From the NCBI GenBank assembly GCA_965263275.1, contig OZ253668.1, positions 1,756,857-1,820,856 of the forward strand: 64,000 nucleotides of DNA, written 5' to 3'. This DNA is from Thermodesulfobacteriota bacterium (GTDB taxonomy: Bacteria > Desulfobacterota_D > UBA1144 > Nemesobacterales > Nemesobacteraceae). The position numbers were made by a program, and so were the translations under genes. Each line of letters starts with the position of its first letter. Position 1 is the first letter of the stretch. A model generated the notes under the pieces. That model made no database searches and had not been told where the DNA came from. It saw nothing but the letters and a program-made list of their open reading frames with translations. Positions 9,700-45,700 of this stretch are shown here, piece after piece.

Positions 9700-9897
9700 A
9701 TGCCTAAGATGAAAACAAACCGCAGCGCGGCCAAGAGGTTCTCCGCTACGGGAAGCGGAAAAATAAGAAGAAACAAGGGCGGTAAAAGCCATACAAACAT
9801 AAAGAAAAGCTCAAAGAGGATGCGGAGGCTCCTGGAACCGGATTTCATAGAAGGTTCCGCCGCCAAGAGGATCAAGACCTATGTTCCTTACCTGTGA
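9700..9897 (+). CDS. rpmI: 50S ribosomal protein L35
   Basis: MPKMKTNRSAAKRF… 65 aa, a textbook L35 N-terminus. Confidence 0.95.
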   Translation: MPKMKTNRSAAKRFSATGSGKIRRNKGGKSHTNIKKSSKRMRRLLEPDFIEGSAAKRIKTYVPYL

Positions 9898-9920
9898 GCT
9901 GATACAGACGGAGAATACAG

Positions 9921-10274
9921 ATGCGCATAAAAAGAGGAGTTACTTCCAGAAAACGGAAAAAAAGAGTTCTTAAGCTTGCCAAGGGATACTGGGGAAGAAG
10001 AAAGAACAATTTCAGAAGAGCAAAAGAAACCATACTCAGGGCGCTTGCCTATGCCTACAGGGACCGGCGCCGCAGAAAAAGGGATTTCAGGGCGCTTTGG
10101 ATTATGAGGATAAACGCCGGGGTGAGGCCTTTTGGACTTTCCTACAGCAGGTTTATCGACGCGCTGAAAAAATCGGACATCGAGCTTGACCGCAAAAGCC
10201 TCTCGGAACTTGCCATACGAGACCCCGAGAGTTTCAAGGCCGTGGTGGAGTTCGCGACCTCGAAAAAGGGGTAG
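9921..10274 (+). CDS. rplT: 50S ribosomal protein L20
   Basis: [29 protein letters not shown]… 117 aa, an L20 signature. Confidence 0.95.
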
Positions 10275-10312
10275 GCCTCCGACTGAATCTTAGGTTTTAT
10301 TCCTACTTTCTC

Positions 10313-10990
10313 TTAAAACGGGTTTATCTGGGGATCGTGCGGATCATTCTCAAGCGGGCAGCCGTCGCAGCGGGGGGTCTTTGCGCAGTGAAGTTTCCCC
10401 GTTTTTACTATGAGCGCGTGGTATTCTCCGAAAACTTCCGTGTCGACCGAAAGACTTTGCGTGAAAAGTTTCTGTATCTTCTCGTAACTCGCGCGTTCGG
10501 GGATCAGGCGGTGGCGGCGGAGAATTCTTCGCGAGTAGTTATCGACCACGAACACGGGTTCCCCAAGCGCGTAGAGCAGTATTGAATCGGCCGTCTCTTC
10601 GCCGATGCCGTTTACCGAAAGCAGTTTCTCCCTGAGTTTGTCCGTGTCCTCTCCGAGCATGTTTTCCATTTCACCTCCGTAATCGGCGAATAGAAAATCA
10701 ATAAAATTCTTAAGTCTCTTGGCTTTTAGGTTGTGATATCCGCAGGGGCGGATCAGGGCCGCTAGCTGCCCATATGATACCGATCTGAGTTTTTCCGCCG
10801 AGAGCATGGAATTTCCCCTGAGCGTCGCTATGGCTTTCTCCACGTTTTTCCAGGATGTGTTCTGCGTGAGTATTGCTCCTGTGGCGCACTCAAGCCTAGT
10901 CTGCGCGGGCCACCAGTTCTGCGGTCCGTATCTTTCGTAAAGGACGGAGTAAAAATTCCGTATTCTTTTAGAACCTTTAATATCACTCAA
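10313..10990 (-). CDS. Endonuclease III-like HhH-GPD DNA glycosylase with C-terminal 4Cys cluster
   Basis: YERYGPQNWWPA…, HhH motif LSVNGIGEETADSILLYALG, and C-terminal CAKTPRCDGCPL. The likely start is TTG at 10988-10990, overlapping the stop of the upstream permease. The track ORF over-extends to 11215. Confidence 0.7.
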   Translation of the reverse strand: MSDIKGSKRIRNFYSVLYERYGPQNWWPAQTRLECATGAILTQNTSWKNVEKAIATLRGNSMLSAEKLRSVSYGQLAALIRPCGYHNLKAKRLKNFIDFLFADYGGEMENMLGEDTDKLREKLLSVNGIGEETADSILLYALGEPVFVVDNYSRRILRRHRLIPERASYEKIQKLFTQSLSVDTEVFGEYHALIVKTGKLHCAKTPRCDGCPLENDPHDPQINPF

Positions 10991-14418: not shown

Positions 14419-17340
14419 TTGCAAAGAAAAAACGGCATTTATGAAGAAGAGGATTTTTTCTCAGCGAGGCATATAGGTCCCACGCCGGAGGAAACGCGCC
14501 ACATGCTTTCGCGCATCGGGGCGCGGAGCCTTGAGGAACTGGTGCGGGAAACCATCCCCGCTGACCTGCTTTCGGGAACTCAGATGGCTGTTCCCGCCGC
14601 CATGACTGAGAGTTCCTATCTTGACCACATAAGGGGTATAGCGCGTGAAAACGCGACATTTAGGTCGTACATAGGCATGGGTTATTACGACTGCGTGACC
14701 CCGACGGTCATATCAAGGAACATTCTTGAGAACCCAAGCTGGTACACTCAGTATACTCCTTACCAGGCGGAGATATCACAGGGACGCCTCGAAGCCCTTC
14801 TTAACTTCCAGACCGTGATCTCGGAACTTACCGGGATGGAGCTTTCAAACGCCTCGCTGCTTGATGAAGCGACGGCGGCTGCCGAGGCTATGGCCATGTT
14901 TCACAGGCTAAGCGGCGCAAAGCGGGAGAAGGCGGACGCCGACGGGTTTTTCGTTTCCCGAAGGTGTTTTCCACAGACCATTGATGTCTTAAAGACCCGG
15001 GCCGAGCCCCTTGGAATAAGGATCGTAGAGGGGGAAGAGGAAGAGGCTTCTCTTGACGGGAGTTTCTTCGGCGCGCTTCTGCAGTATCCAGACACCTTCG
15101 GAGAAGTCAGAGATTACTCAGGATTTGTTAAAAGCGCTCACTCCCACGGTGTCATGGTCGCGGTTGCGGCCGATCTTATGAGCCTCGTGCTGCTTACACC
15201 TCCAGGACGTTTCGGTGCCGATGCCGTTGTGGGAACTTCGCAGAGATTCGGGGTTCCGGTCGGATACGGCGGTCCCCACGCAGCCTATTTCGCTACAAGA
15301 GACGAGTTCAGAAGACAGGTTCCCGGAAGAATAATAGGGGTGTCTTTTGACAGGGATAAGACCCCTGCCTACAGAATGGCTCTTCAGACCAGGGAACAGC
15401 ACATAAGAAGAGAGAGGGCCACTTCCAATATATGCACTGCGCAGTCTCTACTCGCTGTAATGGCCTCGATGTACGCGGTTTACCATGGTCCGGCGGGACT
15501 GCGGCGCATCTCCGGCAGGATAAACACACTCACGAAAATGCTTGACCTGGGTTTTAAAGAACTGGGAGTAGCTCAGCTAAACGGGGCGTTTTTCGATACC
15601 CTGCTTATGGATCTTTTACCTTGGGGAGAAGGATCCTGCGAGACGCTTCGCGCAAACGCCCTTAAAGAAAGGATCAACTTCAGATACCTTCCGGACGAAA
15701 AAGTCTGCATATCCCTTGACGAAACCGTTACCGAGGAAGATATTGCGCAGATGCTTTCGCTTTTTTCAGACTCTCTGGGACTGGGCGAGAAGGTCTCTGT
15801 CACTGTAGGCCGGGCTTCCGTCTCTGCGTCTGTGCCCGAGAACCTTCTGAGGAAGGGGGACTTTCTCACCCAGCCGGTGTTTAGCCGCTACCACTCAGAA
15901 ACTCTGATGCTAAGGTACATAAAGAACCTAGAGGGAAGGGATCTTTCCCTGGCCCATTCCATGATCCCTCTCGGTTCCTGCACGATGAAGCTCAACGGTA
16001 CGACGGAAATGATACCGATAAGCTGGGGAGAATTCTCGAAAATCCATCCTTTCGCTCCCCCGGACCAAACAGCAGGGTACGCGCGGGTGATCGGCGAACT
16101 CGAGAAATATCTCTGCGAAATAACCGGGCTTCATGCCTGCTCACTTCAGCCCAATTCTGGAGCTCAGGGAGAGTACGCAGGACTTATGGTAATACGCAGT
16201 TACTTCAAGGAGAAAAGAGAAAACGAAAAGCAAGTGGTGCTGATTCCTTCTTCGGCGCATGGAACCAATCCGGCAAGCGCCCGGATGGCAGGGATGGATG
16301 TCGTGGTGGTAAAATGCCGGAAAAACGGGGACGTGGACATAGACGACCTTCGTAAATGCTGCCGGAAAAATGAGGGGAAAGTGGCATGCCTGATGATTAC
16401 CTATCCTTCGACTCACGGGGTTTTTGAGTCTGGAATAAGGGAGATATGCGACATAATTCACTCAAACGGCGCGCAGGTATACATGGACGGAGCGAATCTT
16501 AACGCGCAGGTGGGTCTTTGCTTCCCTTCGCTCATCGGTGTTGACGTATGCCACATAAACCTGCACAAGACTTTCAGTATTCCCCATGGAGGCGGAGGAC
16601 CGGGAATGGGTCCCATATGCGTCGCGTCTCACCTTGCCGCGCATCTTCCCGGACATCCTGTTGTGGAATGGGTAGGGGGCGAAAAGTCCTGCGGAACCAT
16701 ATCCGCGGCTCCGTGGGGAAGCGCGAGCATACTGCTGATATCCTACGGATATATAAGGCTTCTTGGAAAGGGCGGTATGAGCGAGGCCTCCCGATACGCG
16801 ATACTAAACGCCAATTACCTTAAGACCCGGCTTGAACAGCATTACGACATTTTGTACGAAGGGGAAAACGGAAGAGTCGCCCATGAATTCGTACTCGACC
16901 TTCGGGAGCTTGGAAAAAGCGCCGGAATAACCGTGGAAGATGTGGCCAAAAGACTGATGGATTACGGGTTTCACGCGCCGACGATGTCGTGGCCGGTTAC
17001 GGGAACCCTGATGGTGGAACCCACGGAGAGCGAATCCATGGAGGAAATGGACAGGTTCTGCGATGCGATGATAAAAATCCGCGGGGAAATTCAGGATATC
17101 ATCGACGGCAGCGCGGACCCTTCAGACAACGTGCTTAGAAATTCCCCCCACACGGTCCTGGATCTTGTGTCTTCCGATTGGGAACATCCATACTCCCGCC
17201 GGCAGGCGTTTTTCCCGCTTCCGCATCTTAGAACAAACAAGTTCTGGCCTTCGGTATCAAGAATAGATAACGCCTACGGCGACAGGAATCTGGTGTGCAC
17301 GTGCCTTCCCCCCGAAGCTTACGTGATGACGGATGAGTGA
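14419..17340 (+). CDS. gcvP: Glycine dehydrogenase (decarboxylating), single-chain P protein
   Basis: 973 aa. FxxRHIGP N-terminus, both N- and C-terminal PLP halves in one ORF, and PLP lysine region …[22 protein letters not shown]. Confidence 0.95.
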   Translation: [973 protein letters not shown]

Positions 17341-23874: not shown

Positions 23875-24832
23875 CTATTTCAGGTGCTTTTGCAGAAGGT
23901 CAAGTGCATCCGAGATCTCACTCATATCCGGCAAATCGCCATGGACCAGATTAGAGAACACGCCTGTATACACCACGTTCAAAGAGTTGCTCCAAGTTTC
24001 AAAATTAGAAAATAGAGGTGTATTTACTAGTGGTTCTTCAAAGCAATCGGAATGTTCAAATCCCCCTGCTTTTTCATCTTCAATACACCTGTCACACAAC
24101 GACTTAAACTCATTGCTTGCGATAAAATTCTGATATTCGTCAAGCCGTAAGACCAGGCAGATATCATAAAGATGGCGAATACGGTTCGATAGTCTGGCAA
24201 TGGGATCATCGCTGTAACTATCCTTGATAATTCCAAGCATTTTCTCAACCAGCGTACGTTTTTGGGACAGTACCTTAATCGAAAAATTTTCTAGCCCGAA
24301 CCGAGCGATTAAATCAACCCTCTTTTTTCTAATCAGGTGCTCCGCAATAAGAGTTCTTATTTTTCGTATTTCAAATGGTTCGGGGTTGGCAAATGCATTG
24401 ATTTCAATTAGCAGTTCCCGGGGGACCTGCTCAAAACCATCGTTATCAATTCTGCAAGGATATTTGTAGACCGTCCTACGGAATTTTGAACCCTTGGATT
24501 CTCGTTCGTCACCCTTAAGAGAAATGAGGTTCTGGGTAACGATGTTTTCCACATTCTTTAGCAACTTTTTTCTTTGACTGTCTCCTTTTTTACTGCTGCA
24601 AGACACAGCCAAGTCAATATCTTCGGAAAAGCGACCTATTAATCTATTATGCTTTGGACAGAGATGTTCCTCCTTTAAAGACCACACTTTCTCTGTACGG
24701 AGATTCAGATAGAAATTTAAGGGACATTGTTATCCAATAACCTTTTTCGATATAGGCATCCGGTATCCCAGCGGATTCCCCTGTGGTCTTTATCAGTTCA
24801 TTGAAGATTTCTTCGTCTTTGTGCAGATTCAT
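23875..24832 (-). pseudogene. abiEii: AbiEii/AbiGii-family nucleotidyltransferase toxin, disrupted by a 1-nt frameshift
   Basis: N-fragment (24647-24832) ends …VVFKGGTSLSKA*. C-fragment (23875-24687) continues in the -1 frame as …NRLIGRFSEDIDLAV… Together these give the AbiEii hallmark GGT.L.......R.SEDIDL. Inserting one base near 24647-24650 restores SKAYNRLIGRFSEDIDL. Confidence 0.75.
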
Positions 24833-25557
24833 TACCTAATGTTCCACTCTCTGGACTCCAGCCACCGAGACTGATCCAGTTTCAGCTTATAAGTTGTTAA
24901 GGGATTTAGGGAGAGTGCCAGGCTGTCTGGCACTGATAGTTGCAAACTTGAAAAAAGCAGACAAATCAGAGCCCTGACTCTAGGAGGGTAGTAATCTTTT
25001 GCTAAAGACGCGAGCCGCAACCGCTCGAGACTGGATAATTCTGATATGCGGCGACGTATGATCTCCAGAGAGATATCTATGTCCGAGTCCTGTATCTTCC
25101 TTATGTCTTTCAGAGCGTCCAGATATTGCAGAAGCGGCACATCCTTTTCCTTTACAGGGATACGGCTCACCACGGTATCAATTCGGATTGTGCCGAATTC
25201 CTTTTTCTGGTGACTGCCTTTGCAGGCAACGGTGACTACGCGGGACATCTGGGTAGTAAGCCCTAACCAGTTATAGAGATACGGGCCGGTGACATAGCCG
25301 CACAGACGGCCGTCCTTATATAACATTGAACGAATAATCTCTCCGTCTGAAGGTCTCATGGGGCCCAGAAGTCCCTTTTTAGATACATAGAAATGTCCCT
25401 TGGAAAAACGTTCAATTTCTCCGTCTGAAACCATTCTGTTTACTGCCTTGATAACTGCGCCCGGAGATTTTAAATAATCCGGCAGTTCTCGATAGCTGAA
25501 TATCCGCCCGGCGGGCATTTCTTCAATGCTTTTCCGTACCGCCCTCGCAATGCTCAT
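24832..25557 (-). CDS. abiEi: AbiEi-like antitoxin / transcriptional regulator (type IV TA, abortive infection)
   Basis: 241 aa. Its stop overlaps the abiEii start (operon order antitoxin then toxin). N-terminal winged-helix-like region MSIARAVRKSIEEMPAGRIFSYRELPDYL typical of AbiEi/DUF6088 proteins. Confidence 0.6.
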   Translation of the reverse strand: MSIARAVRKSIEEMPAGRIFSYRELPDYLKSPGAVIKAVNRMVSDGEIERFSKGHFYVSKKGLLGPMRPSDGEIIRSMLYKDGRLCGYVTGPYLYNWLGLTTQMSRVVTVACKGSHQKKEFGTIRIDTVVSRIPVKEKDVPLLQYLDALKDIRKIQDSDIDISLEIIRRRISELSSLERLRLASLAKDYYPPRVRALICLLFSSLQLSVPDSLALSLNPLTTYKLKLDQSRWLESREWNIR

Positions 25558-27439: not shown

Positions 27440-30376
27440 TCAGGAAAGGTCTTTTCTTATGGCCAGGGTTTTTTTCGACGTCATTCCTTTTTCGTCTTTG
27501 GCCACTATGGTGAAAAGATTCATTCCTTCCTCAAGAGCTAAGGGGAAAAGCAGGGGAACATTGTCTCTCCCCGGTGTAAAAAGCTTTATCTTGTCGTTTT
27601 TTTTCCACACCGACACGCTCTCTATGCGGTCGGTGTCCTTAACCGATCCCTCTACTGTTATCTTGGAAGCTTCTGTGGACATCGGAAAATCCGAAATCAG
27701 GATCAAAGGAGGTTTTTCGAATGTTTCTTCAAGAAGTGAGATCTCCTGTGCGGTGCTGTCTGTTCCGTTTTTTTCCGACGCTCCGGACGAATTGTCGTAG
27801 TCGGCACGATTAACCCTGACGGTTTCCCCCTCAATCCAGCCCGCCACTGAGTTTTTTCCCTCAACACGGATCCATTGCCCAGATGTGCCGAGAACTTTTA
27901 CCATGGAATTTTTCTTTGCAAGAGCCGTTACGGAGGCTCCGGGGAAAGTTCCACCAAGTATGGAGCTTGTGTCTTTGAACACAGCGGTTTTCTTTGCCGA
28001 AGCCGGAGAAAACGGTCTTTCCTGCGCAAAGACCGGCAGGGTTATTTTCTGTGCTTTTACTTCCCGGAAGTCTTCATCCATTACAAAAAGCTCAAATTTC
28101 GTTTCACCGCCTTCGCCATTTTGCCTGAAACGAAACGGTGCGTAGCGGATTTCCCCCGGACGAAAATTTTCAATCTCAACTCTTCCTTTTTCAAGAAACA
28201 CGTTGTCGCCCGAAAGATTCTTTAGAGTCGCGACCGTCTTTTCCGATACTCCATCCCCGATGTTTTTCAGTTTTACGTTGAGTACTACCGTTTCTTCGAG
28301 CTCCGCGCGACCGTTTCCGTTACCTCTGCTCTCAAATTTTCCGTTGTCCACTATTTCGTGGTTATGGGAGTAGACGGGGTGCTTGTCCGCCACGGTTTTT
28401 ACGAGCAGATTTTTCTCCGTAAAGGTTTTGTTCCCCGAACTTGTGAAAGCAAGTTTGAGATTATCCTCTCTGGTAGTCATCCACCTGGGTACGGAAAATT
28501 TGACTTTCGAGGTCTTGCTCTGACCGGGGAGTAGTTTTCCGAACAGAAGTTCTCCATCACTGTAAACGCGGTTTTCACAGTCAGTAACGGCACTGAGCCT
28601 GTATATCGGGTCGGGGCCGGAGTTTGTCACCTTTATCTCGAGAGAACTTTCTTCACCGGCCCGGAAAACGGTCTTCGATGGAACCGTTTCAACCGATACG
28701 GCGGGTTTTTTCGTTTCACCGGCTGACCAGTCGATTCCAGTATCTTCGATCTGGGTTCTGATTTCTTCAAGCTGGGCGTTGGAGAAATCGGCGGCTGTGG
28801 CATGTATCTGTTCCGGGGTCTTTGCTAGAAGAAGTCTGCTTGAGAGTTTCACGTAAAAATCATTTCCCAGCTTTTCAAGTTTCTGCGCTTTTGTAAGCGA
28901 TTCATCCGGCTGGGTTTCATCATCGTCTTCTTCCTGCGGCGCCAAGCTTTTGTCAATATACTTGATCGTGAGTTCAGGGGTTGCCAGTTGTCCTTCCTCT
29001 GAGTTCTCTCTTTTCTCGGGCAGAGGGTTATAGACGACTTTCTCTCCGGTTATCACGGATCCCTGAAGAAGAATGTCAGGAGTTATGCCGCTGTCCTGTA
29101 TGGATATATCGCCCGGGGTCAGATATTTCGCTATGGTGAGTTTCAATGCCGCGCCGTCTTCAAACTCAAAGACCTTCTGGACCGATCCCTTGCCGAAGGA
29201 TCTTTTTCCTATCACAAGTGCTCTTTTGTTGTTTTTCAGCGCTCCTGCCACTATTTCTGACGCACTCGCGCTTCCCTGATTCGCAAGCACTATTACTTTT
29301 CCTCTGTACTCAGGCTGTTTTGCCGTCGCCCTGTAGGTTTTCGAATAGTCTCTTGCTTTTGTCGTCATTATCGTTCCCGAGGAAAGGAAGAGATCGGCTA
29401 CTTTCTCCGCTTCTGAGAGAAGACCCCCAGGGTTTCCTCTGAGATCAAGGATTATTCCTTTGGTTGCATAAGAGCGGCTTCTTATCTCTTTTTTTAGGTC
29501 GGAGGATGTGTTTTTCTGGAAATTTCTTATTCTCAGGTAAAGAATGTTGTTTGCAAGATCAAACCCTTCAACACTTTCTATCTTTATGGTATCCCTCACT
29601 ATTGAAAATTTCCGCGGTCTGGCAAAGTTTTTCCTGGATATAAGAAGATTCACTTCAGTTCCTTTCTTCCCCCTGAGTTTCCCAACGGCTTCGAGAAGCG
29701 GCATGCTTATGGTCGACTCGTTTTCTATCTGCACGATCCGGTCTTTGGTTTTTATCCCTGATCTGTAAGCGGGAGTACCCTCTATGGGGGAGATTACAGT
29801 CAACTGACCGTCTCTTATGCCGACCACTATCCCAAGCCCGCCGAAACTTCCCTCGGTGTCTATGAGAAACTCCTTGTAGACATCCGGTGGAATCATCGCG
29901 GAGTGGGGGTCGAGGACCTTCAGCATGCTGTCCGATATGGAATATTCTATGTTCTTGACAGCACGCTCTTCGGCCCCTGTGTTAGAAAGGACAAAAGACA
30001 CAACCTGGCCCAGAGTGCTTGCAACGTCGTTTGAGGACGGCAACTCTTTTTCTTTGAATCTCTTTGTTTTTTCCTTTACCTGAACGGTGAAGCTTCCGCC
30101 CCGGTCTTGTGGAAATTCCACCAGCACGTCGTCAAGAAAGGTTTCAAGGCTGGAGACCCCTTTTTCAAGCATTTCCGCATAATCGATCTTGCTTTTGTCC
30201 AGATAAAATTTGTTTACGTGCTTAAGGGCCTCTTCGGCAATTTTCATGCTCTGATTGTTGTATTTGCGATCAAGACTGACCGGCTCGGCGACAAGAAAAA
30301 AAGAAAGGGCAATAACAACTCCCAAGGCAAGGGCTAAGTATCTGTTTCTGAGAAAACTTGGAATTTTTTCAGACAA
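27440..30376 (-). CDS. Large S41-family C-terminal processing peptidase (PDZ + S41 core) with long C-terminal extension containing an SH3b-like segment
   Basis: PDZ region GGLGIVVGIRDGQLTVISPIEGTPAYRSGIKTKDRIV. S41 catalytic region GIILDLRGNPGGLLSEA…RALVIGKRSFGKGSVQ (Ser/Lys dyad). Near the C-terminus, …VLGTSGQWIRVEGKNSVAGWIEGETVRV is SH3b-like. Confidence 0.8.
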   Translation of the reverse strand: MSEKIPSFLRNRYLALALGVVIALSFFLVAEPVSLDRKYNNQSMKIAEEALKHVNKFYLDKSKIDYAEMLEKGVSSLETFLDDVLVEFPQDRGGSFTVQVKEKTKRFKEKELPSSNDVASTLGQVVSFVLSNTGAEERAVKNIEYSISDSMLKVLDPHSAMIPPDVYKEFLIDTEGSFGGLGIVVGIRDGQLTVISPIEGTPAYRSGIKTKDRIVQIENESTISMPLLEAVGKLRGKKGTEVNLLISRKNFARPRKFSIVRDTIKIESVEGFDLANNILYLRIRNFQKNTSSDLKKEIRSRSYATKGIILDLRGNPGGLLSEAEKVADLFLSSGTIMTTKARDYSKTYRATAKQPEYRGKVIVLANQGSASASEIVAGALKNNKRALVIGKRSFGKGSVQKVFEFEDGAALKLTIAKYLTPGDISIQDSGITPDILLQGSVITGEKVVYNPLPEKRENSEEGQLATPELTIKYIDKSLAPQEEDDDETQPDESLTKAQKLEKLGNDFYVKLSSRLLLAKTPEQIHATAADFSNAQLEEIRTQIEDTGIDWSAGETKKPAVSVETVPSKTVFRAGEESSLEIKVTNSGPDPIYRLSAVTDCENRVYSDGELLFGKLLPGQSKTSKVKFSVPRWMTTREDNLKLAFTSSGNKTFTEKNLLVKTVADKHPVYSHNHEIVDNGKFESRGNGNGRAELEETVVLNVKLKNIGDGVSEKTVATLKNLSGDNVFLEKGRVEIENFRPGEIRYAPFRFRQNGEGGETKFELFVMDEDFREVKAQKITLPVFAQERPFSPASAKKTAVFKDTSSILGGTFPGASVTALAKKNSMVKVLGTSGQWIRVEGKNSVAGWIEGETVRVNRADYDNSSGASEKNGTDSTAQEISLLEETFEKPPLILISDFPMSTEASKITVEGSVKDTDRIESVSVWKKNDKIKLFTPGRDNVPLLFPLALEEGMNLFTIVAKDEKGMTSKKTLAIRKDLS

Positions 30377-30561
30377 ATAAGATCACCGTCCCGGAAACTG
30401 TATTATCAACCATATCGAATATTATATCAAACTGCTTTTTCGCGGGACGGCCGATACAAAGTAAAGAGGGAAACAGGGGCGGTTATCTTGCCTTAGATGC
30501 CGCGAGAATACGCATTAGCTTTGCGTTTAGACGCAAAAAAAGAACTAGAGTTATTTGGAAG

Positions 30562-30617
30562 AAAAACAAAAAACAACGGACAGGGAGAATTCATTATGAT
30601 TCTTCCCTGTCCGTTGT
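30562..30617 (-). terminator. Rho-independent terminator downstream of the amiS/ureI-like gene
   Basis: Perfect 14-bp stem acaacggacaggga / tccctgtccgttgt (30573-30586 / 30604-30617), followed on the minus strand by UUUUUGUUUUU (rc of 30562-30572). Confidence 0.7.
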
Positions 30618-30640
30618 AAGTCAGCTAAGCAACAAAAATC

Positions 30641-31165
30641 TTAGCCTGGTACTCCACCGAGAGGATTCCACTTTTCTGTAAGCAGAAGCATTCCCGGGAT
30701 CAACAGAGTTACTATCGACTCTATTACGAACAGATAGGCTATCGGCTTACTCAGATCCTTGCCCTGCGAGAACGCAAAGAAGCAAAGAAGCACCAGCAAA
30801 GCCCATGCCCAGCAGAAATACGCAAAGTACGCCAGCCCAAGTGCCTGGAAATGAGCTCCGTACCATACAAACACTACCGTTGCGAAAAGACAGAATACTC
30901 CAAGCCCCTTCGCGTCATGTCCGTGTACGAATACCGCATAGACTAGCAGGTATATCAAAGCAAATACCGACACAAGCGCGGTCGCTGCCGTAAGACCAAG
31001 AGTGTGCAGTTTCCAGGCGGCAATCGCTATAAGCACGCCGACACCCAGATTAAGAACACCCACTTCCTTAGCACCGGTTTTACCCAGAAGAGTCATACCG
31101 TTTGCAAAGAACACAAATCCTACAAGTAGCAACACGTAACCTAATAAAGCTTCTATTGGAACCAT
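30641..31165 (-). CDS. AmiS/UreI-family (urea/amide channel) membrane protein
   Basis: 174 aa, 6 TM. N-terminus LLGYVLLLVGFVFFANGMTLLGK…VGVLNLGVG parallels H. pylori UreI MLGLVLLYVGIVLISNGICGLTK…NFFVGG. Confidence 0.6.
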   Translation of the reverse strand: MVPIEALLGYVLLLVGFVFFANGMTLLGKTGAKEVGVLNLGVGVLIAIAAWKLHTLGLTAATALVSVFALIYLLVYAVFVHGHDAKGLGVFCLFATVVFVWYGAHFQALGLAYFAYFCWAWALLVLLCFFAFSQGKDLSKPIAYLFVIESIVTLLIPGMLLLTEKWNPLGGVPG

Positions 31166-31654
31166 AATTAACCATACCTCCTTATGAAATCATAAACGTT
31201 TCTAGCCCACATATCGGGGCTCATTAAGCTTGTATCACAGATGGATCTTCAATGTCAAGCATAATTTTTATTGAGTAGGATCTCGGCATGTGGCATTCAA
31301 CTTATGAAGTAACTAACTTCTTATCATCGTAAGTTAACCCAATTCCTGCCCTTTTCGCCATAGTCTGTGTCCATTGACGTTTGCTGAACTGCCTTTTTGC
31401 CTTAAAACCTAGTTGGTTATCTTATGTCTCTGTGACTTGATTGATCCCTAGGGACAGGCTTTTCCAAGAAACCCATGCCAGCCTTAATCCGGCTTTATAA
31501 GGTTGGTAAAAAGTGGCGATCAGCTAGATCTGAAGAGTGATTCTTTCCTGTTAAATTCTCGGTAAAATTAAATAACGAAGTTCTTAACTTACAGTTTTTT
31601 ATGGTATAATCATCCTGTAAAATTGCTTTTGCATATTTGCATAGGAGAAGCGCT

Positions 31655-32035
31655 ATGGCGAATGAGAAAACGAGTGGTGGGGTAAACCCGAATATCTGGA
31701 TAAGGCCGCCTGAGGAAAGAACCGACAAGGGCGGTATTGTGGGTACGACTCTGAGTTCGCAACCTAAGACGCAACCAAAATACAAGACATTTGAAGTACT
31801 TACGTTACGAATAAGCAATGAAGACTTTGAATTTCTTCACAACCTTGAAAGAGAGATAATGAAGAACCGTTCCAAGGAAAACAAAAAAGAGAGAATAACA
31901 AAGAACAGCATTATGCGAGCGATGCTCAGCTGTCTCAAGAACGTAAATTTCGACAGAAAAAATATTCCAGACGAAAACGAGCTTCGGATCAGGGTAATGA
32001 AAGGACTGAAAGAGCATCCTTCCTGGTTCTTTTAA
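31655..32035 (+). CDS. Small basic hypothetical protein, possible ribbon-helix-helix DNA-binding protein
   Basis: RBS aggagaag lies 5 nt before ATG 31655. The segment …KTFEVLTLRISNEDFEFLHNLEREI…RITKNSIMRAMLSCL has a beta-strand/helix/helix pattern like RHH/ParG proteins. Sits upstream of the ADC-like pair. Confidence 0.4.
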   Translation: MANEKTSGGVNPNIWIRPPEERTDKGGIVGTTLSSQPKTQPKYKTFEVLTLRISNEDFEFLHNLEREIMKNRSKENKKERITKNSIMRAMLSCLKNVNFDRKNIPDENELRIRVMKGLKEHPSWFF

Positions 32036-32142
32036 ACCATTTTTCCAACTGATTCCAGTCGAAAACACCTTGAAAAATCCATGAATTTACGGGTTGTTAC
32101 CGCTAAGAACCCAAAACAATGGTTTAGGTAGCAAGAAAGTAC

Positions 32143-32171
32143 TTGACAAAGGGGGTTGTGTTTGGTTTAAT
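32143..32171 (+). promoter_or_regulatory. Sigma70-like promoter for the ADC-like tandem genes
   Basis: TTGACA (32143-32148), a 17-nt spacer, then TTTAAT (32166-32171). AAGGAGG RBS before ATG 32309. Confidence 0.45.
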
Positions 32172-32308
32172 GAGAATCGGGTGAGGTTGCGTCTATTCGC
32201 ATCCAGCAAGGCTGTAAACACTTTATCAACAAGGGGCTATGGGGAGTGTGAGGTATGGAGAGTGTTTAGGAGTTTTGGCCCTAAATCTATAGTAAGGAGG
32301 CTTTAAAT

Positions 32309-33289
32309 ATGAGCCATAGTCATTTAAACGTCCCAACGAAGTACTGGGAGTTGACGAAAGAGGTACCGCCCCCTCCGATAGAGCGGGATATCAAGTCATG
32401 GATCATAGCGAATCCGTCGGATCCGCTTTGGGACATAGACGTGCTGCCGCTGACTTATACGGACAGCAGGTGGTCAGCGTTCATAGTAAGATGTGATGAG
32501 GCGACGAGGACACGTCTGTGCCCGACTCCCCCGTTACAGGTGTGGGACGGAGAGAATGCAGATCTGGTAGAGTTTTGGTATGTTGAGCATGTGAACACGA
32601 TGTTAGGTCCATATCTTGAGTTTGGCGTAACGATCTCGGCGACGTACAGTGACCCAGAGGGCAATGTATGGAAAGCGGGATACTATCCGTATATGTATTT
32701 GACGGGAGACGCGCCGGTGGACGCGGGTCGTGTGCTTGGATTTCCAAAGAAGATGTCGTACATCAGATGTACGGTACACGGTGGAGAGAAAGGCACTGAC
32801 TTTTTTGGGTATGCGATGAGTCGTAACGGTTATCTGATGCATAGCGCAACAGGGCAGTTTGACGACAAGCAGGTAACACCTCCGTATTTCTATGGTAAGA
32901 CAGACTGGGGCAAGTTCAACATGAAGGTAATAACGCGGCCGGACGTATCGAGTTCGGAGTGGCAGTTAACATATCTGCCATCAGCGTTGCCGCCTCCGTT
33001 TGACGCAATGATCCAGGGGCACAGGTTCAAGATCAAGCCTGAGCACACCAGGACAGCAAGTGGAGACGCCATAAACTGGTTTATGCAGGCGACACCGTTT
33101 GACAACATGGGAGCGGAGCTGAAGATCCAGGAGGTAACGGGAATGATATCGTTTGTATTCGATCTCGTAATACCGCCGGCGGTGGTACTCTGGACGGAGA
33201 CGTATGAGAGGCCAGCGAGTTACAGGGGTTATGCCACACCATACAAGTATGGATTGAGGCAGCAGTTCCCGATCAGTCAGGGTTCATAA
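32309..33289 (+). CDS. Acetoacetate decarboxylase (ADC) family protein, paralog 1
   Basis: …YYPYMYLTGDAPVDAGRVLGFPKKMSY… aligns with C. acetobutylicum ADC …YLHMMYLDNEPAIAVGRELSAYPKKLGY…, where K115 is the Schiff-base lysine. Upstream, VEFWYV…GPYLEFGV matches the ADC beta-cone. Confidence 0.75.
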   Translation: MSHSHLNVPTKYWELTKEVPPPPIERDIKSWIIANPSDPLWDIDVLPLTYTDSRWSAFIVRCDEATRTRLCPTPPLQVWDGENADLVEFWYVEHVNTMLGPYLEFGVTISATYSDPEGNVWKAGYYPYMYLTGDAPVDAGRVLGFPKKMSYIRCTVHGGEKGTDFFGYAMSRNGYLMHSATGQFDDKQVTPPYFYGKTDWGKFNMKVITRPDVSSSEWQLTYLPSALPPPFDAMIQGHRFKIKPEHTRTASGDAINWFMQATPFDNMGAELKIQEVTGMISFVFDLVIPPAVVLWTETYERPASYRGYATPYKYGLRQQFPISQGS

Positions 33290-33319
33290 GAAAAGTAAAG
33301 TTAAGGAGGTAAAACCATA

Positions 33320-34291
33320 ATGGGATTACAAGCAAATGAGTACAGTTATCCTTGGTTGGATGAAGGAGAAGTTCCACCATTACCATTGGACAGGGACAGG
33401 ATCCATATCATCAGTCAGGGCGTAGCGGACCCGGTGTTCGACTACGATATCATACCGCTGACGTATACAGACAGCAGGTGGATGGCCTATGTAATAAAGG
33501 CAGACATCAATGCTATGAAAGCGGTGGTACCGGAGCCGATCGAGGTTCAGGATGATGTAATAGAGTTTTGGTACGTAATACACAAGAACACGATGTTAGG
33601 TCCATACATGGAGATGGGCGTAACGTTCTCGGCAACAGTGGATGACGGGAGTGGTCATATATACAGGGCGGGATACTATCCGTACATGTATCTGTCAAAC
33701 GACTCTCCGATATTTGCGGGTAAAGAGCCCTTTGGATTTCCGAAGAAGGCTGCTTACATTGCCGGGTATGAGCATGGTACCAACAACAACTACTTCAATC
33801 ATCTGATGGAGCGCAGAGGTTATATACTGCACACAGCGAACGGGCGTTATTCTGACAGGCCGCTGTCGGCGAGGCCAACATTTTATGGCAAGACCGATTG
33901 GGGACGTATGAACTACAGGATAACAACGAGGCCGGATGTAACGACCAGTATCCACGAAGTAACGTATCTTCCTTCGGATCTTCCTCCGGGATTTGGGACT
34001 GGGCACAGGTTCCAGCTGAATCCTGAGAGTGTAAGGACCGCGGTAACAGAGGATGTACGTTCGTGGTTCCTGTCAGGCACACCGTTTGACTATATGGGCG
34101 GACAGATACCAGCAATGGAGGTAGTAGGGTTGATAAGCTTCACGTTCAACCTGATCATACCGCCGGCGGCGACGATCTGGACAAGGACGGTAGAGAGGAC
34201 GACTGAAGACTTTGGTCATGTGGTCTACTCCACGCCGTTTGTGTACACGATGCGTCACAGGTTCCTGCTGCCACAGTATAGCCAGGGCTAA
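33320..34291 (+). CDS. Acetoacetate decarboxylase (ADC) family protein, paralog 2
   Basis: AMKAVVPEPIEV vs ADC ALRKVVPEPLEI. YYPYMYLSNDSPIFAGKEPFGFPKKAAY vs ADC YLHMMYLDNEPAIAVGRELSAYPKKLGY. About 45% identical to paralog 1 across the full length. Confidence 0.8.
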   Translation: MGLQANEYSYPWLDEGEVPPLPLDRDRIHIISQGVADPVFDYDIIPLTYTDSRWMAYVIKADINAMKAVVPEPIEVQDDVIEFWYVIHKNTMLGPYMEMGVTFSATVDDGSGHIYRAGYYPYMYLSNDSPIFAGKEPFGFPKKAAYIAGYEHGTNNNYFNHLMERRGYILHTANGRYSDRPLSARPTFYGKTDWGRMNYRITTRPDVTTSIHEVTYLPSDLPPGFGTGHRFQLNPESVRTAVTEDVRSWFLSGTPFDYMGGQIPAMEVVGLISFTFNLIIPPAATIWTRTVERTTEDFGHVVYSTPFVYTMRHRFLLPQYSQG

Positions 34292-34328
34292 TGACAAAAA
34301 GATGAGCTTATCTCAGTAGGAGTAAGCT

Positions 34329-34376
34329 TGTGATAGTTGAAGGGGGGAGGGAAGCCGGAAACGGTTATCCTTCCCC
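34329..34376 (+). terminator. Rho-independent terminator after the ADC-like pair
   Basis: Stem aagggggga (34330-34338) / tccccccctt (34362-34370), followed by TTTTTTT (34369-34375). Confidence 0.65.
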
Positions 34377-34423
34377 CCTTTTTTTGTGCCTGGATTGATT
34401 TTTCCGTAAACTAATACGAAGCG

Positions 34424-35173
34424 ATGCCTTCCAGTACTCTCATAGTGTACGAACCTTTGGATTCTTTCAGAGAGAAATCTGAATACTGGAGCAAATATCT
34501 TAAGTTTTATGAGCTTTACTGGGGTGGTCCCACTTCTCCTTTCGGAATATGGTTCGGCAATGATTACAGTGCGTTTCGCCAGGCGTTATCCGACCATCTT
34601 AACCTGCCCCATGAAGACCTGCCCGACTGTCTTTTCATGAGGGATGAAAGTGGCAACTATTTCGTTGCGCCGACTTCGGATTCCCTCAACTGCTTTTCAT
34701 CCGAAAACGTTATTCCGCTTGAGTGGTTCCTCCTTTTTTCCGAGGAGGGAAGGAAGAATTTCTATACGCACTGGGGCTTTAACTCGATCCATTACAATTC
34801 GACACTTGAGCAATCGAAAAAAAGACTGACTTCCTCGCGGGAAAGAATCGGGGAGACGATGTCTGGAGAATCCGTAAACCCTCTTAAAATTTTTCTCCGC
34901 AATCTTGACCGGAGTCTCGAAGACCTTAAAAAATGGCTTGTGCAGTTTGACACACAAAGCCATCTGGTGCTTAACTACGGCGACATCTGCAATTACATAC
35001 ATCCCTACACCCTGAAAAATGAAAACAGCGTAACGGAAGTCGTAAGAATTCTGGAATTTATCTCCTTGTCGGACTTTGCTGAAGCGGAGCTTGCGCTTAA
35101 GGTGTTTTTTCAGAAATGGGAGGATATAGCAACAAAGTGCGCCGGTGGCACCGAAGATTCCCAAATCCAGTAA
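34424..35173 (+). CDS. Hypothetical 249-aa protein
   Basis: Long ORF with coding-like composition and no recognisable motifs. Its stop overlaps the nth start region. Confidence 0.4.
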   Translation: MPSSTLIVYEPLDSFREKSEYWSKYLKFYELYWGGPTSPFGIWFGNDYSAFRQALSDHLNLPHEDLPDCLFMRDESGNYFVAPTSDSLNCFSSENVIPLEWFLLFSEEGRKNFYTHWGFNSIHYNSTLEQSKKRLTSSRERIGETMSGESVNPLKIFLRNLDRSLEDLKKWLVQFDTQSHLVLNYGDICNYIHPYTLKNENSVTEVVRILEFISLSDFAEAELALKVFFQKWEDIATKCAGGTEDSQIQ

Positions 35174-35192
35174 GGGTCCGCCCCCGAGTGAT

Positions 35193-35861
35193 ATGACCGC
35201 CAAACTTGAGAGAAAAAACATCGGAAGGATTCTGGGAATACTGAGAAGAGAAGCCGCCGGATGGAACGTTCCGGTGGTTACGCTTACAGCAGTTTCCTCA
35301 AAAAGTCCTTTCAGGGTTCTTATTTCCACGGTGCTCAGCCTGAGAACCAAGGATGAGACCACAGCCGGGGCTTCAGCGAGACTTTTCAGCGAGGCTTCCA
35401 CCCCGCGCGCCGTGCTGGAACTGGGAGAAAAAAAGGTAAGGGAACTTATATATCCCGTCGGTTTTTACAGGGTAAAGGCGCAGAACATCATTGGGATATG
35501 TGAGAAACTGATAGACGAACATGACGGCCGGGTTCCGGACAGTATCGACGAGCTTTTAAAATTCCGCGGTGTCGGGAGAAAAACGGCTAACCTGGTTCTT
35601 TCTCTTGGATACGGAAAACCCGCCATCTGCGTTGATATTCACGTGCACAGGATCTCGAACAGGTGGGGCTACGTGGATACCAGAAACCCTTATGAAACCG
35701 AGATGGCTCTTCGGGAAAAACTGCCGCGCAGATACTGGATAGAGTATAACTCTCTTCTGGTGGCTCTGGGGCAGCAGATATGCAGACCACTCTCTCCTAT
35801 TTGCAGCCGTTGTCCCGTAAGTGGTTATTGCCCGAGGACGGGAGTTTCGAGAAGCAGATAG
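35193..35861 (+). CDS. nth: Endonuclease III (DNA-(apurinic or apyrimidinic site) lyase)
   Basis: …FRVLISTVLSLRTKDETT… HhH motif LKFRGVGRKTANLVL, catalytic Lys/Asp region, and C-terminal 4Fe-4S ligands CRPLSPICSRCPVSGYC. Confidence 0.88.
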   Translation: MTAKLERKNIGRILGILRREAAGWNVPVVTLTAVSSKSPFRVLISTVLSLRTKDETTAGASARLFSEASTPRAVLELGEKKVRELIYPVGFYRVKAQNIIGICEKLIDEHDGRVPDSIDELLKFRGVGRKTANLVLSLGYGKPAICVDIHVHRISNRWGYVDTRNPYETEMALREKLPRRYWIEYNSLLVALGQQICRPLSPICSRCPVSGYCPRTGVSRSR

Positions 35862-43872: not shown

Positions 43873-43889
43873 CTATCCCTGCCTTTCTA

Positions 43890-44315
43890 TTAACCCGCGG
43901 GTTTGAATTTGGGGAGTGTGACCTCATCTGTGACGTCATCGAACACGACCTGAACATCCATACCGATGGACACTTCATGGGGATCGACGTCAACGACGTT
44001 AGACATCATCTTAACCCCTTCTTCCATCTCAATTAACGCAACCACGTAAGGGGGTTCCCCCTTGTAGGCCTTGGATGGTCCCATGTGATGTATGGAGAAG
44101 GTCCATACCTTCCCCCGTCCCTCACTCTCAACCCACTCTATGTCATCACTCATGTCCCCTCCGGGGGAAAGAGCTCTTGGGTAAAAGAAAAACTCTCCGG
44201 TCGTCCTTGATCTGGGGATAACCAGCCTGTGCTCCTTAGCCGCATCCCAGAAAGGCTTTGTCTCCGGGCGGAACTCAGGCAAGGGCTTGTTGTACGCTTT
44301 TTTCTCTTCAGACAT
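43890..44315 (-). CDS. DUF35 Zn-ribbon/OB-fold protein (thiolase partner)
   Basis: 141 aa with an OB-fold C-terminal half. Typical size and position of DUF35 proteins encoded next to SCP-x-type thiolases. Confidence 0.55.
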   Translation of the reverse strand: MSEEKKAYNKPLPEFRPETKPFWDAAKEHRLVIPRSRTTGEFFFYPRALSPGGDMSDDIEWVESEGRGKVWTFSIHHMGPSKAYKGEPPYVVALIEMEEGVKMMSNVVDVDPHEVSIGMDVQVVFDDVTDEVTLPKFKPAG

Positions 44316-44337
44316 CTTCTTATTCTCCTTGTTTGTG

Positions 44338-45548
44338 TTAATTAAGCGGCTGGTTGCCCAAAACCACAGTACTGTGAGCAGACACTATGCCGCCGTTTCC
44401 ATGCACTACCGCCACCTCGGGGTTCTCTACCTGCCTCTTACCAGCATCTCCACGAAGTTGTAAAGTAGCTTCAATCACGTGATGCATAGCCCCCAGGTGA
44501 GCCTGCGAGAGCAGTCCCCCGTGGGTGTTAACGGGAAGATCCTTCCCTATCTCCATTCTTCCCTCAAGAGCAAACGGTCCCCCCTCTCCCTTGGGAACAA
44601 ACCCTAGTCCCTCAAGTTCAAGCAGCACGGTTATGGTGAAGCAGTCATAAAGAAACGCTATGTCAACGTCCCTTGGCTCTATCCCCGCAGTGCCGAAAGC
44701 CTTCTGCCCCGAGCGCTCAACAGCGTTGTATATCTGGTCAAGGTTATTAAGCGACGTAAGGTACTGATGGGAGTATCCCTGTCCCATTCCCCAGAGGTAC
44801 GCAAGATCGTTTGTTATTCCAAGCTCCTTCGCCTTGTCCTCTGTAGTGACTATAAAAGCCGCTCCTCCGTCTGAGATAACGGAGCAGTCATACTTGGTAA
44901 GAGGCTCCGCTATAATTCTTGACTCAAGTACGTCCTCTATTGAGAGAGGATCCTTGTTCATGGCGTTTTCTTTATCGGCGGCGTGCTTTCTCATTGTTAC
45001 CGCTACCGCTGCGAGATGCTCTCTGCGGCTACCCCAGTCATGGAGGTATCTCTGCGCCGCAAGCGCGTATCCCCCGGGAGTAGTGAGTCCGTAGGGGAAC
45101 TCAAACTCCGCGTGGCACATCTCCCTTATAAGGGCAAGCATCCCTGAAGAGGATATCCCCGAAAGTGTGTTGTCCCCTCTTACGCAAAGAACAACTTCAG
45201 CCTGTCCCGAAGTTATGGCCATGGCGGCCTCGCCACCATCCACACAGCTGTCGCTCCCCCTACCGCCACCGAGGAGAAGAACCTTGGGTTCATCCCGAAG
45301 TAGTCGGCAAAGGTGGTGCAGTGCATAAAAGTGTGCTCCACCAGGGAGAACGCCGTCACAAGACCGTCGACGTCGTCTTTTTTTAGTCCAGCGTCCTCAA
45401 TAGCGAGCTTTGAAGCTTCGCTCAGGAAATGAAAGGAGCTTTTATTAGGGATTTTACCCTGTTCCGTTTCGCCCACTCCGGCGATAACCACTTTTTTCTT
45501 CTTAAGAAGTTCTCGGGTCTCTTGTATGCCCGGAAGATTCTCTGACAT
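44338..45548 (-). pseudogene. SCP-x/archaeal-type thiolase (acetyl-CoA C-acyltransferase) split by a frameshift at a C5/G5 homopolymer
   Basis: N-fragment 45213-45548 …FADYFGMNPRFFSSVAVGGATAV…*. C-fragment 44338-45243 DGGEAAMAITSGQAEVVLCVRGDN…HGNGGIVSAHSTVVLG. One extra G in the ggggg run (rc of 45256-45260) yields the contiguous …SSVAVGGSDSCVDGGEAAMAITSG… active-site region. Confidence 0.7.
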
Positions 45549-45700
45549 TGTACTGCCTCCTCCTTAACTTAAACGCTCTAAATTCAAAAATTCCGTATCA
45601 TATTACTATATACATCCATTATTTGCCAAATCGTACGTGCAGGACCCGCTCCGCGTGAATTATTCTCCTTTTATGTTCAAAGAAGTATAATGTTTCAGAA

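Follow-up and report, generated by a model that had tools for sequence, protein, structure and literature searches.

A rare A/B-paired branch of the acetoacetate decarboxylase superfamily evolves in concert at two loci of Dadabacteria and is linked to genes of a putative aldolytic acyl-CoA module

In a 64,000-nt stretch of contig OZ253668.1 (assembly GCA_965263275.1, a Thermodesulfobacteriota bacterium; the whole stretch is called the window below), two tandem genes, adcA and adcB, encode long-form members of the acetoacetate decarboxylase (ADC) superfamily. Together with their promoter, leader and terminator they make up a 2.29-kb cassette (32106-34393) that occurs twice in the genome, and the two copies are an old duplication homogenised by recurrent gene conversion, i.e. 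by concerted evolution, a conclusion that we hold with very high confidence. Taken as a whole, the data are best explained by a gene-converted operon whose products would form a heteromeric Schiff-base enzyme, AdcAB, working with an aldolytic beta-oxidation module, a reading to which we assign a probability of roughly 0.6. It takes the place of an earlier view, from a first-pass annotation of the sequence, in which positions 31655-35173 were a single islet with AT-rich flanks that comprised the ADC pair, a possible ribbon-helix-helix (RHH) protein of 126 aa and a 249-aa protein without recognisable features.

Comparison of the second locus with the window by BLASTN returned three near-identical segments: 32106-34393 (2288 bp, 99.96% identity), with the promoter, leader, adcA, adcB and terminator; 30630-31267 (641 bp, 97.0%, inverted), with a gene for an AmiS/UreI-family channel and its promoter; and 43882-45630 (1750 bp, 98.97%), with a DUF35 gene and a thiolase-like gene whose product is identified below as a putative aldolase. 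AmiS, adcAB and DUF35 plus aldolase are exactly the cassettes that are co-duplicated in this genome. The twin of the adcAB segment lies at 8787-11074 of locus L011, on the same contig, ~130 kb from the cassette and in direct orientation. Two independently assembled contigs each carry two genes for the identical AdcB protein, the adcAB copies lie ~121 kb apart in a second, circular assembly of 1.69 Mb, and the window itself is 99.99% identical to ENA ERZ25068833 ctg58010. At both ends of the cassette, identity drops abruptly, only a few bases away from the signals for promoter and terminator, the tract ending 7 nt past the terminator. The duplicated unit is therefore narrower than the islet drawn in the first-pass annotation: near-identity is confined to 32106-34393, and the 126-aa and 249-aa genes fall outside all three segments. 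Inspection of the cassette boundaries revealed no transposon-like ends, integrase or tRNA, and transposition was for that reason rejected as the mechanism of duplication. The AmiS copies are inverted with respect to one another, and the adcAB and aldolase/DUF35 cassettes form direct repeats separated by ~130 kb. Repeats of this kind might invert or delete the stretch between them, where nuo, suf and other housekeeping genes lie.

In a scan of species-representative genomes, the closest relatives were metagenome-assembled genomes (MAGs) of 1.4-2.4 Mb labelled Candidatus Dadabacteria or Thermodesulfobacteriota, and both chromosomal positions of the cassette are conserved across many of these species. 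Locus 1, that of the window, runs S41 peptidase, AmiS, 126-aa gene, adcAB, DUF8083-nth and nuoJKL; locus 2 runs Aldedh (aldehyde dehydrogenase), AmiS, MaoC, DUF35, thiolase-like gene and acyl-CoA dehydrogenase (ACAD), divergent from adcAB, and then DUF1015. Both locus types have flanks whose synteny is kept across species, at ~83-88% DNA identity to the window genome. The cassettes, in all 20 of the genome pairs tested, share a tract of 2.25-2.4 kb at 98.1-100% identity with nearly the same end points. Across 14 genomes with clearly assignable loci, cassette identity averaged 99.45% within a genome (range 98.3-100) and 89.8% between genomes (81.6-97.0), regardless of which locus types were compared, and in a neighbour-joining tree the copies paired by genome in 14 of 14 cases. 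It is this pairing by genome, set against flanks that are syntenic and diverged, that identifies concerted evolution, with conversion tracts whose ends coincide with promoter and terminator. The AmiS and DUF35 plus aldolase cassettes have been homogenised likewise, but less often: AmiS coding sequences are on average 98.2% identical within genomes and ~93% between them, and pair by genome in 11 of 13, with one sister-species pair grouping by locus, as expected of episodic conversion. Concerted evolution of duplicated bacterial genes is known from tufA/tufB and from rRNA operons, whose dispersed copies are also near-identical within a genome, diverge between species and cluster by genome. In contrast to these, the converted units here are three separate accessory-metabolism cassettes with tract ends at promoter and terminator, maintained across a clade of small (1.4-2.4 Mb) genomes.

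The very high within-genome identity (98-100%) and the metagenomic origin of the assemblies might instead suggest that the two copies arose by very recent duplication in each genome, or are an artefact of assembly. We find this scarcely credible, since both loci have unique syntenic flanks that are ~12-17% diverged between species, so that the two-locus state predates speciation; independent insertion at the same two sites with the same boundaries in at least 14 species is implausible, the arrangement recurs in many independent assemblies, and the intermediate divergence of AmiS, with its one species pair grouping by locus, is the pattern of episodic conversion. Horizontal acquisition of 31655-35173 as an islet of MppR/Sbi00515-like secondary-metabolism enzymes with an RHH regulator and an orphan gene is, in our judgement, very improbable. 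The spacers that had prompted it are as long and AT-rich as described (31166-31654, 489 nt, 38.0% GC; 32036-32308, 273 nt, 41.8% GC; median spacer 172 nt) and are the most AT-rich long spacers of the window, in which intergenic sequence averages 45.5% GC and coding sequence 50.6%; adcAB is served by a promoter and a terminator of its own, and the ADC-like family is patchy across phyla. The cassette itself, however, is ordinary, with a genome-typical GC content of 49.7%, and the islet reading fails because relatives have the same genes in the same context (at least 19 species, flanks ~85% identical) with ordinary base composition. In addition, neither the 126-aa nor the 249-aa gene is included in the homogenised tract, the proposed islet showed no integrase, tRNA or repeat boundaries, and the nearer relatives of the family are true ADCs and not Sbi00515, as set out below.

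Several genomes show further rearrangement at these loci. In the more distant Dadabacteria contig OY729416.1 (L060/L061), a 2424-bp ADC cassette is duplicated at 100% identity and the adjoining 2924-bp segment, with aldolase, DUF35, MaoC and AmiS, at 99.5%, so that a six-gene set is present twice. A third strain (L019, ERZ25072854 ctg60372, locus 1) carries IS21-type (IstA/IstB-like) and rve-integrase elements at ~5900-9700 and 15100-16100, which take the place of the locus-1 aldolase copy and break up the nuo-suf region. The same strain has an intact locus 2 (L018), and the locus-1 duplicates may for this reason be dispensable, or in flux, in some strains. At locus 2 of the window genome, a 166-aa fragment of an IS30-family transposase (L011 2972-3472; NCBIfam 66.9 bits, below cutoff) lies between Aldedh and SelR; it is absent or different in the 1.69-Mb assembly, in which the Aldedh gene is apparently split (L009 2088-3481).

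All four open reading frames that the first-pass annotation had listed between 31655 and 35173 are present (Table 1), and its assignment of the two large ones to the ADC family was borne out by HMMER, both scoring above the PF06314 gathering cutoff of 29.8 bits. The matches span profile positions 17-181 of 238, and the C-terminal strand aligns weakly with residues 215-240 of the Clostridium acetobutylicum ADC (CaADC, 3bh2). AdcA and AdcB are 47% identical over 320 aa (~45% had been estimated), carry the motifs VVPEPIEV, YYPYMYL and GFPKK that had been read in them and are, as also noted previously, ~80 aa longer than solved ADCs (244-255 aa), from which they differ by an N-terminal extension, internal loops and a C-terminal tail. 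AlphaFold2 models (AdcB, ma97c8460d097, pLDDT 83.1; AdcA, m25d2badacd3c, pLDDT 81.7) are confident over the core, and the 24 Foldseek matches in the PDB at E <= 0.001 are, without exception, ADC-superfamily structures, led by the true ADCs (Chromobacterium violaceum 3bgt, with the highest TM score of 0.79, then 3c8w and 3bh2) and followed by 3cmb and then by Sbi00515, MppR and Swit_4259. A family profile searched against the PDB likewise reached 3bh2 at E = 5e-16 (3bgt and 3c8w were also found), as opposed to E = 0.019, over only ~50 residues, for Sbi00515 (4zbo). Membership of the ADC superfamily is thus established, and membership of the true-decarboxylase family (EC 4.1.1.4) is not, identity to true ADCs being only ~17-19%.

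By profile and predicted fold, AdcA and AdcB are nearer to true ADCs than to MppR and Sbi00515, contrary to the earlier suggestion that they are secondary-metabolism enzymes of the latter kind. Nor is their length a pointer in that direction, because MppR and Sbi00515 are themselves only ~260-265 aa long; Sbi00515 (4zbo/6eej), MppR (4jm3) and Swit_4259 (5upb) together span ~255-265 aa and are all encoded by single genes. These proteins do share the superfamily fold with AdcA and AdcB (Foldseek E ~1e-12), along with the FPKK/Glu core. In the alignment with 3bh2, AdcB K142/K143 and E98 are in register with CaADC K115/K116 and E76, and these three positions (AdcB numbering) are invariant in 61 sequences across both of the clades described below. 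R53 and E82 of AdcB are invariant along with E98, K142 and K143, as are the FPKK lysines and the E76-equivalent Glu of AdcA. True ADCs are found with the solventogenesis genes ctfAB, whereas adcAB is clustered with a putative retro-aldolase, DUF35 and CoA enzymes, a neighbourhood of catabolic acyl-CoA chemistry; no enduracididine genes (MppP/MppQ) or polyketide genes occur in the adcAB context. In Desulfofundulus, an aminotransferase gene adjoining the ADC pair (L004 10086-11288) has as its best NCBIfam match GntC, a PLP-dependent enduracididine-forming cyclodehydratase, at 299 bits, below the cutoff of 415 and with generic aspartate-aminotransferase models scoring slightly lower. The match is probably a coincidence, mentioned here since MppR, of the ADC superfamily, acts in enduracididine biosynthesis.

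Unlike true ADCs, which are encoded by one gene, the long form occurs as a pair of paralogues. Phylogeny resolved two ancient clades, A (the upstream gene) and B (the downstream gene), so that the description of adcA and adcB as an old tandem pair, and not a recent duplication, stands. The window and all five of the other loci in the tree (L001, L004, L006, L012 and L013) have one gene of each clade, A then B, and A lies directly upstream of B in 71 of 75 Dadabacteria-type loci with enough flank, mostly at a distance of 24-34 nt. Because ancient A and B clades are co-encoded in fixed order, we predict with moderate confidence that AdcA and AdcB form a hetero-oligomer. Homologues of 320-340 aa are patchily distributed in MAGs labelled Thermodesulfobacteriota/Dadabacteria, Actinomycetota, Nitrososphaeria, Desulfobacteria and Thermoanaerobacteraceae, and the pair has one cultivated carrier species, Desulfofundulus luciae. 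An exhaustive HMMER search of 1.84 billion representatives clustered at 50% identity found only 18 at E <= 1e-30, several of them fragments, and reached canonical ADCs of ~245 aa only at E ~1e-8 to 1e-4; on these similarities, the long form is a small and distinct branch of the superfamily. Our search of the literature found no description of a long-form ADC subfamily, or of this combination of genes.

In all sampled lineages the genes beside adcAB include ACAD, ETF, thiolase-like and DUF35, MaoC, Aldedh and transporter genes, and no secondary-metabolism genes. Thiolase-like and DUF35 genes stand next to the ADC pair in Dadabacteria, L006, L103, L004/L012 and L101/L102; thiolase-like gene, DUF35, adcA and adcB are collinear in L103, and in seven Dadabacteria-type genomes (L065, L067, L068, L073, L076, L077 and L084) aldolase, DUF35, MaoC, AmiS, adcA and adcB follow one another on one strand. 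The OB_ChsH2_C (DUF35) gene adjoins the aldolase gene, a Thiolase_C_1 member in Pfam, in both loci of the window genome, and MaoC_dehydratas adjoins in locus 2. Functional linkage of adcAB to the aldolase and DUF35 genes, and in the Dadabacteria-like clade also to AmiS, can be stated with high confidence.

The active-site motifs of the thiolase-like protein are those of an aldolase. Its Gly98, conserved in 55 of 57 orthologues, aligns with the nucleophile Cys (AACASG) of the thiolases 7yvy and 6esq; it has no C-terminal catalytic Cys, and carries an LYDCFT/YDCF motif in Dadabacteria, L006 and L103. Ltp2 (6ok1) is its second-best match in the PDB (E = 1e-62), and 9myr is also matched. In the bile-acid aldolase Sal, which binds a DUF35 domain, the nucleophile position is taken by Gly and the catalytic residues are Tyr302 and Cys304 of a YDCY motif; Sal-type aldolases release aldehydes, and TbSLP has YDCF (PMC12329534). 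Judged by these residues, the Dadabacteria protein appears to be a Cys-less retro-aldolase of Sal/Ltp2 type rather than a thiolase. In the window, loss of 1 bp near 45231 (GCGGCCTC-GCCACC) breaks the aldolase copy into open reading frames of 301 and 111 aa; the same locus in the 1.69-Mb assembly (L015, 537x coverage) encodes an intact protein of 403 aa. With only 13x coverage of the window contig, the deletion could reflect a pseudogene at strain level or a fault of assembly. The Dadabacteria DUF35 protein (43890-44315 on the minus strand; L011 5564-5989) lacks all four zinc-ribbon cysteines (…PRSRTTGEFFFYPRALSPGG…), while the L103 homologue keeps CxxC…CxxC.

Known side-chain modules of steroid degradation have the same parts list, namely Scd (ACAD), Shy (a MaoC plus DUF35 hydratase), Sal and Sad (aldehyde dehydrogenase) of Comamonas/Pseudomonas and the actinobacterial ChsE/ChsH1-H2/Ltp2, and the aldolase here resembles Sal in its Gly at the nucleophile position and in YDCF, matching YDCY. 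It differs from them in that steroid-ring degradation genes are lacking, DUF35 and MaoC are separate small proteins, the former without zinc-ribbon cysteines in Dadabacteria, and the module is joined to both an ADC-like pair and a small-solute channel, which no steroid cluster is known to have. The substrate of the module is probably small. The channel gene (30641-31165, divergent from and upstream of the pair in the window, and collinear with it in several genomes) had not been identified in the first-pass annotation; its product, ~174 aa long, gives an end-to-end match to PF02293 (profile positions 2-165 of 166), the family of Helicobacter UreI and Pseudomonas aeruginosa AmiS. In contrast to those channels it has no urease or amidase nearby, and in several genomes its gene lies between MaoC and adcA.

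These features suggest a pathway in which AdcAB would act as a Schiff-base decarboxylase or lyase after aldolytic cleavage of an acyl-CoA. An acyl-CoA dehydrogenase would form the enoyl-CoA and the MaoC hydratase the 3-hydroxyacyl-CoA, which the Sal/Ltp2-type retro-aldolase, held by DUF35, would cleave to acetyl-CoA and a carbonyl compound. We favour a substrate with a distal carboxylate, which would yield a beta-keto acid (acetoacetate from HMG-CoA, or malonate semialdehyde from 3-hydroxyglutaryl-CoA), as beta-keto acids are the substrate class of Schiff-base ADC enzymes. AdcA and AdcB, assembled into a hetero-oligomeric lysine Schiff-base enzyme, would then decarboxylate the beta-keto acid. 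The product, a ketone or aldehyde that is small and neutral (acetone or acetaldehyde), would cross the membrane through the AmiS/UreI-type channel or be oxidised by the aldehyde dehydrogenase. Such a route would explain why the genes for aldolase, ADC pair, channel and aldehyde dehydrogenase are linked; our confidence in its specific chemistry, decarboxylation of a beta-keto acid to a small neutral product, is low to moderate. A stricter version, in which heteromeric AdcAB is the terminal enzyme of an undescribed thiolase-independent catabolic route, receiving the beta-keto acid directly from a DUF35-scaffolded aldolase that cleaves a 3-hydroxy-dicarboxylyl-CoA (HMG-CoA or 3-hydroxyglutaryl-CoA, for instance), and acetone or a similar product leaves through an AmiS/UreI channel repurposed from urea and amides, is speculative and on balance unlikely.

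Several observations weigh against this pathway. Arg29 and Glu61 of CaADC are reportedly important in true ADC activity; three independent HMMER alignments place an invariant Ser52 opposite R29 and an invariant Trp84 opposite E61, with the invariant Arg53 at +1 and the invariant Glu82 at -2, respectively. With both residues out of register, and with the KK/E core found in aldolase-dehydratases as well, decarboxylase chemistry is not established. The NCBIfam ADC model NF002614 gives AdcA and AdcB only 26.4 and 55.6 bits, far under its cutoff of 150, and the literature that we searched contained no biochemical account of any member of the long-form subfamily. At four loci (L095, L096, L099 and L100) a B-type gene stands without any A-type partner within +/-10 kb, so that the heteromer may not be obligatory. 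Linkage to AmiS is limited to the Dadabacteria-like clade, other lineages having TRAP or MFS transporters, and clusters of Firmicutes/Desulfobacteria type carry a Cys-bearing archaeal-type thiolase and an HMG-CoA-synthase-like protein instead of a Sal-type aldolase, along with ETF and an Fe-S oxidoreductase; because the partner there is a Cys-bearing thiolase, the shared chemistry may be broader than retro-aldol cleavage followed by decarboxylation. Lastly, the ACAD and Aldedh subtypes are not diagnostic, all of their NCBIfam matches falling below curated cutoffs. The B-only loci (e.g. L099 8980-13543) carry, in this order, a TetR gene, the B-type gene and a split B12-dependent acyl-CoA mutase (a 557-aa large and a 136-aa B12-binding subunit) that may be of methylmalonyl-, isobutyryl- or 2-hydroxyisobutyryl-CoA type; its nearest NCBIfam model is methylmalonyl-CoA mutase, and a candidate identification as 2-hydroxyisobutyryl-CoA mutase was not used as evidence.

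The same gene set could serve other chemistry. AdcAB might be a Schiff-base aldolase or hydratase-aldolase of Sbi00515/MppR type. Acting on an aldehyde and a small keto donor (pyruvate, acetone or acetoacetate), it would either couple the two or cleave them apart, and aldehydes would pass between it and the Sal-type aldolase and aldehyde dehydrogenase of the same catabolic route. The KK/E core is common to the whole superfamily, including Sbi00515 (4zbo alignment), the fold gives matches to Sbi00515, MppR and Swit_4259 as well (E ~1e-12), R29 and E61 are unmatched in register, Sal-type aldolases do release aldehydes (PMC12329534) and an aldehyde dehydrogenase is clustered with the pair. True ADCs are nonetheless closer, both by profile (E = 5e-16 versus 0.019) and by fold (TM score 0.79 versus ~0.65-0.72), the invariant Arg and Glu within 1-2 residues of the R29 and E61 positions could substitute for them, and the neighbourhoods contain no secondary-metabolism genes; we consider this possible, and the less likely alternative to decarboxylation.

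The pathway could also be assimilatory: acetone or another small ketone would enter through AmiS, be carboxylated or condensed by way of an AdcAB enamine and be passed by the thiolase-like/DUF35 and CoA enzymes into central metabolism. AmiS/UreI channels pass small neutral urea- or acetamide-like molecules, with which acetone is isosteric, and this would suit such an uptake. ATP-independent carboxylation of acetone is strongly endergonic, however, and the genes that cluster with the pair include neither an ATP-dependent carboxylase nor an energy-coupling component. A weak hint comes from the sigma54 activator of the L101 and L102 cluster, which has a precomputed MimR_N domain, mimR being the regulator of the mim propane monooxygenase cluster, whose enzyme is needed for propane and acetone metabolism (PMC8394569); it is domain-level only, and the best NCBIfam match of the regulator is DhaR. 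Aquifer communities show acetone turnover from an unexplained source (PMC5264521), which could likewise be brought in support. Both observations also point weakly to small ketones in the decarboxylation pathway preferred here. All in all, we judge assimilation improbable, and prefer decarboxylation downstream of the aldolase.

Table 1. Positions of the adcAB cassette, its signals and neighbouring features (window coordinates)
Feature	Position	Strand	Remarks
adcAB cassette (promoter, 137-nt leader, adcA, adcB, terminator)	32106-34393	+	copy 1 of 2 in the genome
sigma70-type adcAB promoter	32143-32171	+	TTGACA 32143-32148, 17-nt spacer, TTTAAT 32166-32171
5' leader, 137 nt	32172-32308	+	ribosome-binding site AAGGAGG 32294-32300, conserved
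adcA, putative A-type subunit, long-form ADC-like, 326 aa	32309-33289	+	PF06314 62.7 bits; A clade
adcB, putative B-type subunit, long-form ADC-like, 323 aa	33320-34291	+	PF06314 76.9 bits; B clade
Intrinsic terminator	34340-34386	+	GC-rich hairpin stem ~34340-34379, then T7 run ending at 34386
AmiS/UreI channel gene with own promoter	30630-31267 (coding sequence 30641-31165)	-	PF02293 92.5 bits; twin L011 4123-4763
DUF35 + aldolase cassette	43882-45630	-	DUF35 43890-44315, aldolase 44338-45548; twin L011 5556-7305, 98.97%
Promoter region of the 126-aa gene	31571-31610	+	palindrome AAGTT-CTT-AACTT 31578-31590 over the -35; extended -10 TGGTATAAT 31602-31610
Basic 126-aa protein, possible regulator	31655-32035	+	outside the cassette, specific to locus 1; ribosome-binding site AGGAG 7 nt upstream
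DUF8083 protein, 249 aa	34424-35173	+	precomputed PF26312; outside the ADC unit

The signals that bound the conversion tract were established by sequence reading, folding and footprinting; a generic promoter/terminator scan called neither, missing the promoter because its -10 hexamer has no A at position 2. The adcAB promoter lies where the first-pass annotation had placed it and is conserved in 67 distinct upstream sequences, among which the -35 TTGACA is at least 95% conserved and the -10 is conserved together with a TG at 32163-32164, one base before TTTAAT, that makes it an extended -10, and with an AAGAAAG block (32134-32140) just 5' of the -35. Only the first ~10 nt of the leader and the ribosome-binding site are conserved in the same set, the remainder varying freely. 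A search of 30300-35500 against Rfam (E <= 1) found only a sub-threshold VrrA match outside the region and none in the leader; with neither an Rfam match nor conservation, a riboswitch in the leader was rejected as unlikely. The terminator is as strong as had been proposed (fold z = -4.9 relative to shuffled sequence), although its coordinates had been set ~10 nt too far to the left.

Of the two genes now excluded from the ADC unit, the upstream one encodes a protein of 125-126 aa in 19 species (58-96% identity), with a variable N-terminus and a strongly conserved C-terminal region of ~85 aa (…LTLRIS-EDFEFL-LEREIMKNRS…KERITKNSI-RAML…). Weaker homologues occur near ADC loci elsewhere, in L069 between the ACAD gene and adcA. 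The conserved, beta-alpha-alpha-like pattern is compatible with an RHH DNA binder; Pfam gave no match at E <= 0.1 beyond noise, NCBIfam and PHROG gave none, and a profile of 12 sequences searched against the PDB found only unrelated proteins (best E 0.27). In a footprint of the AmiS/126-aa spacer over 20 loci, the extended -10 TGGTATAAT proposed for this gene is conserved, as is the perfect palindrome AAGTT-CTT-AACTT, whereas the direct repeat pointed out alongside it (two copies of TTTGCATA, 31628-31643) is not conserved across species. A second conserved block is the inverted repeat TAACTT-N11-AAGTTA at 31314-31336. Both palindromes are essentially unique in the window and are candidate operators, possibly for the 126-aa protein itself.

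The downstream gene, earlier thought featureless, is assigned by precomputed Pfam annotation to PF26312 (DUF8083), a match that a local Pfam search did not return. It overlaps the start of nth (35145) and stays with nth where that gene is apart from the ADC pair (L058 and L034). Elsewhere in the window, upstream of the S41 peptidase region (~23900-25500, minus strand; L010 556-2238), genes for AbiEii, a nucleotidyltransferase toxin, and DUF6088 form a pair that is likely a type IV toxin-antitoxin or abortive-infection module, and a related pair lies near insertion sequence elements in the third strain (L019 3947-5555).

A known enzyme superfamily here gains an A/B-paired branch with a new pathway context, and concerted evolution an unusually clear case. 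The conserved pair defines a rare long-form branch of the ADC superfamily linked to Sal/Ltp2-type retro-aldolases, and may offer a new decarboxylase or aldolase biocatalyst. Concerted evolution acts unusually cleanly on three accessory-metabolism cassettes, clade-wide and in tracts bounded by promoter and terminator, which implies that pathway dosage, or its dual regulation, is under strong selection in Dadabacteria. It also illustrates that what looks like an AT-flanked islet can be a resident gene-converted duplicate rather than horizontally acquired DNA. A genomic context free of urease and amidase suggests a new cargo for the AmiS/UreI channel family. Were the acetone route correct, it would explain selection for two gene-converted copies of exactly three cassettes, and Dadabacteria would be a biological source of acetone in subsurface and marine environments, helping to explain the turnover of acetone from unexplained sources in aquifers (PMC5264521).

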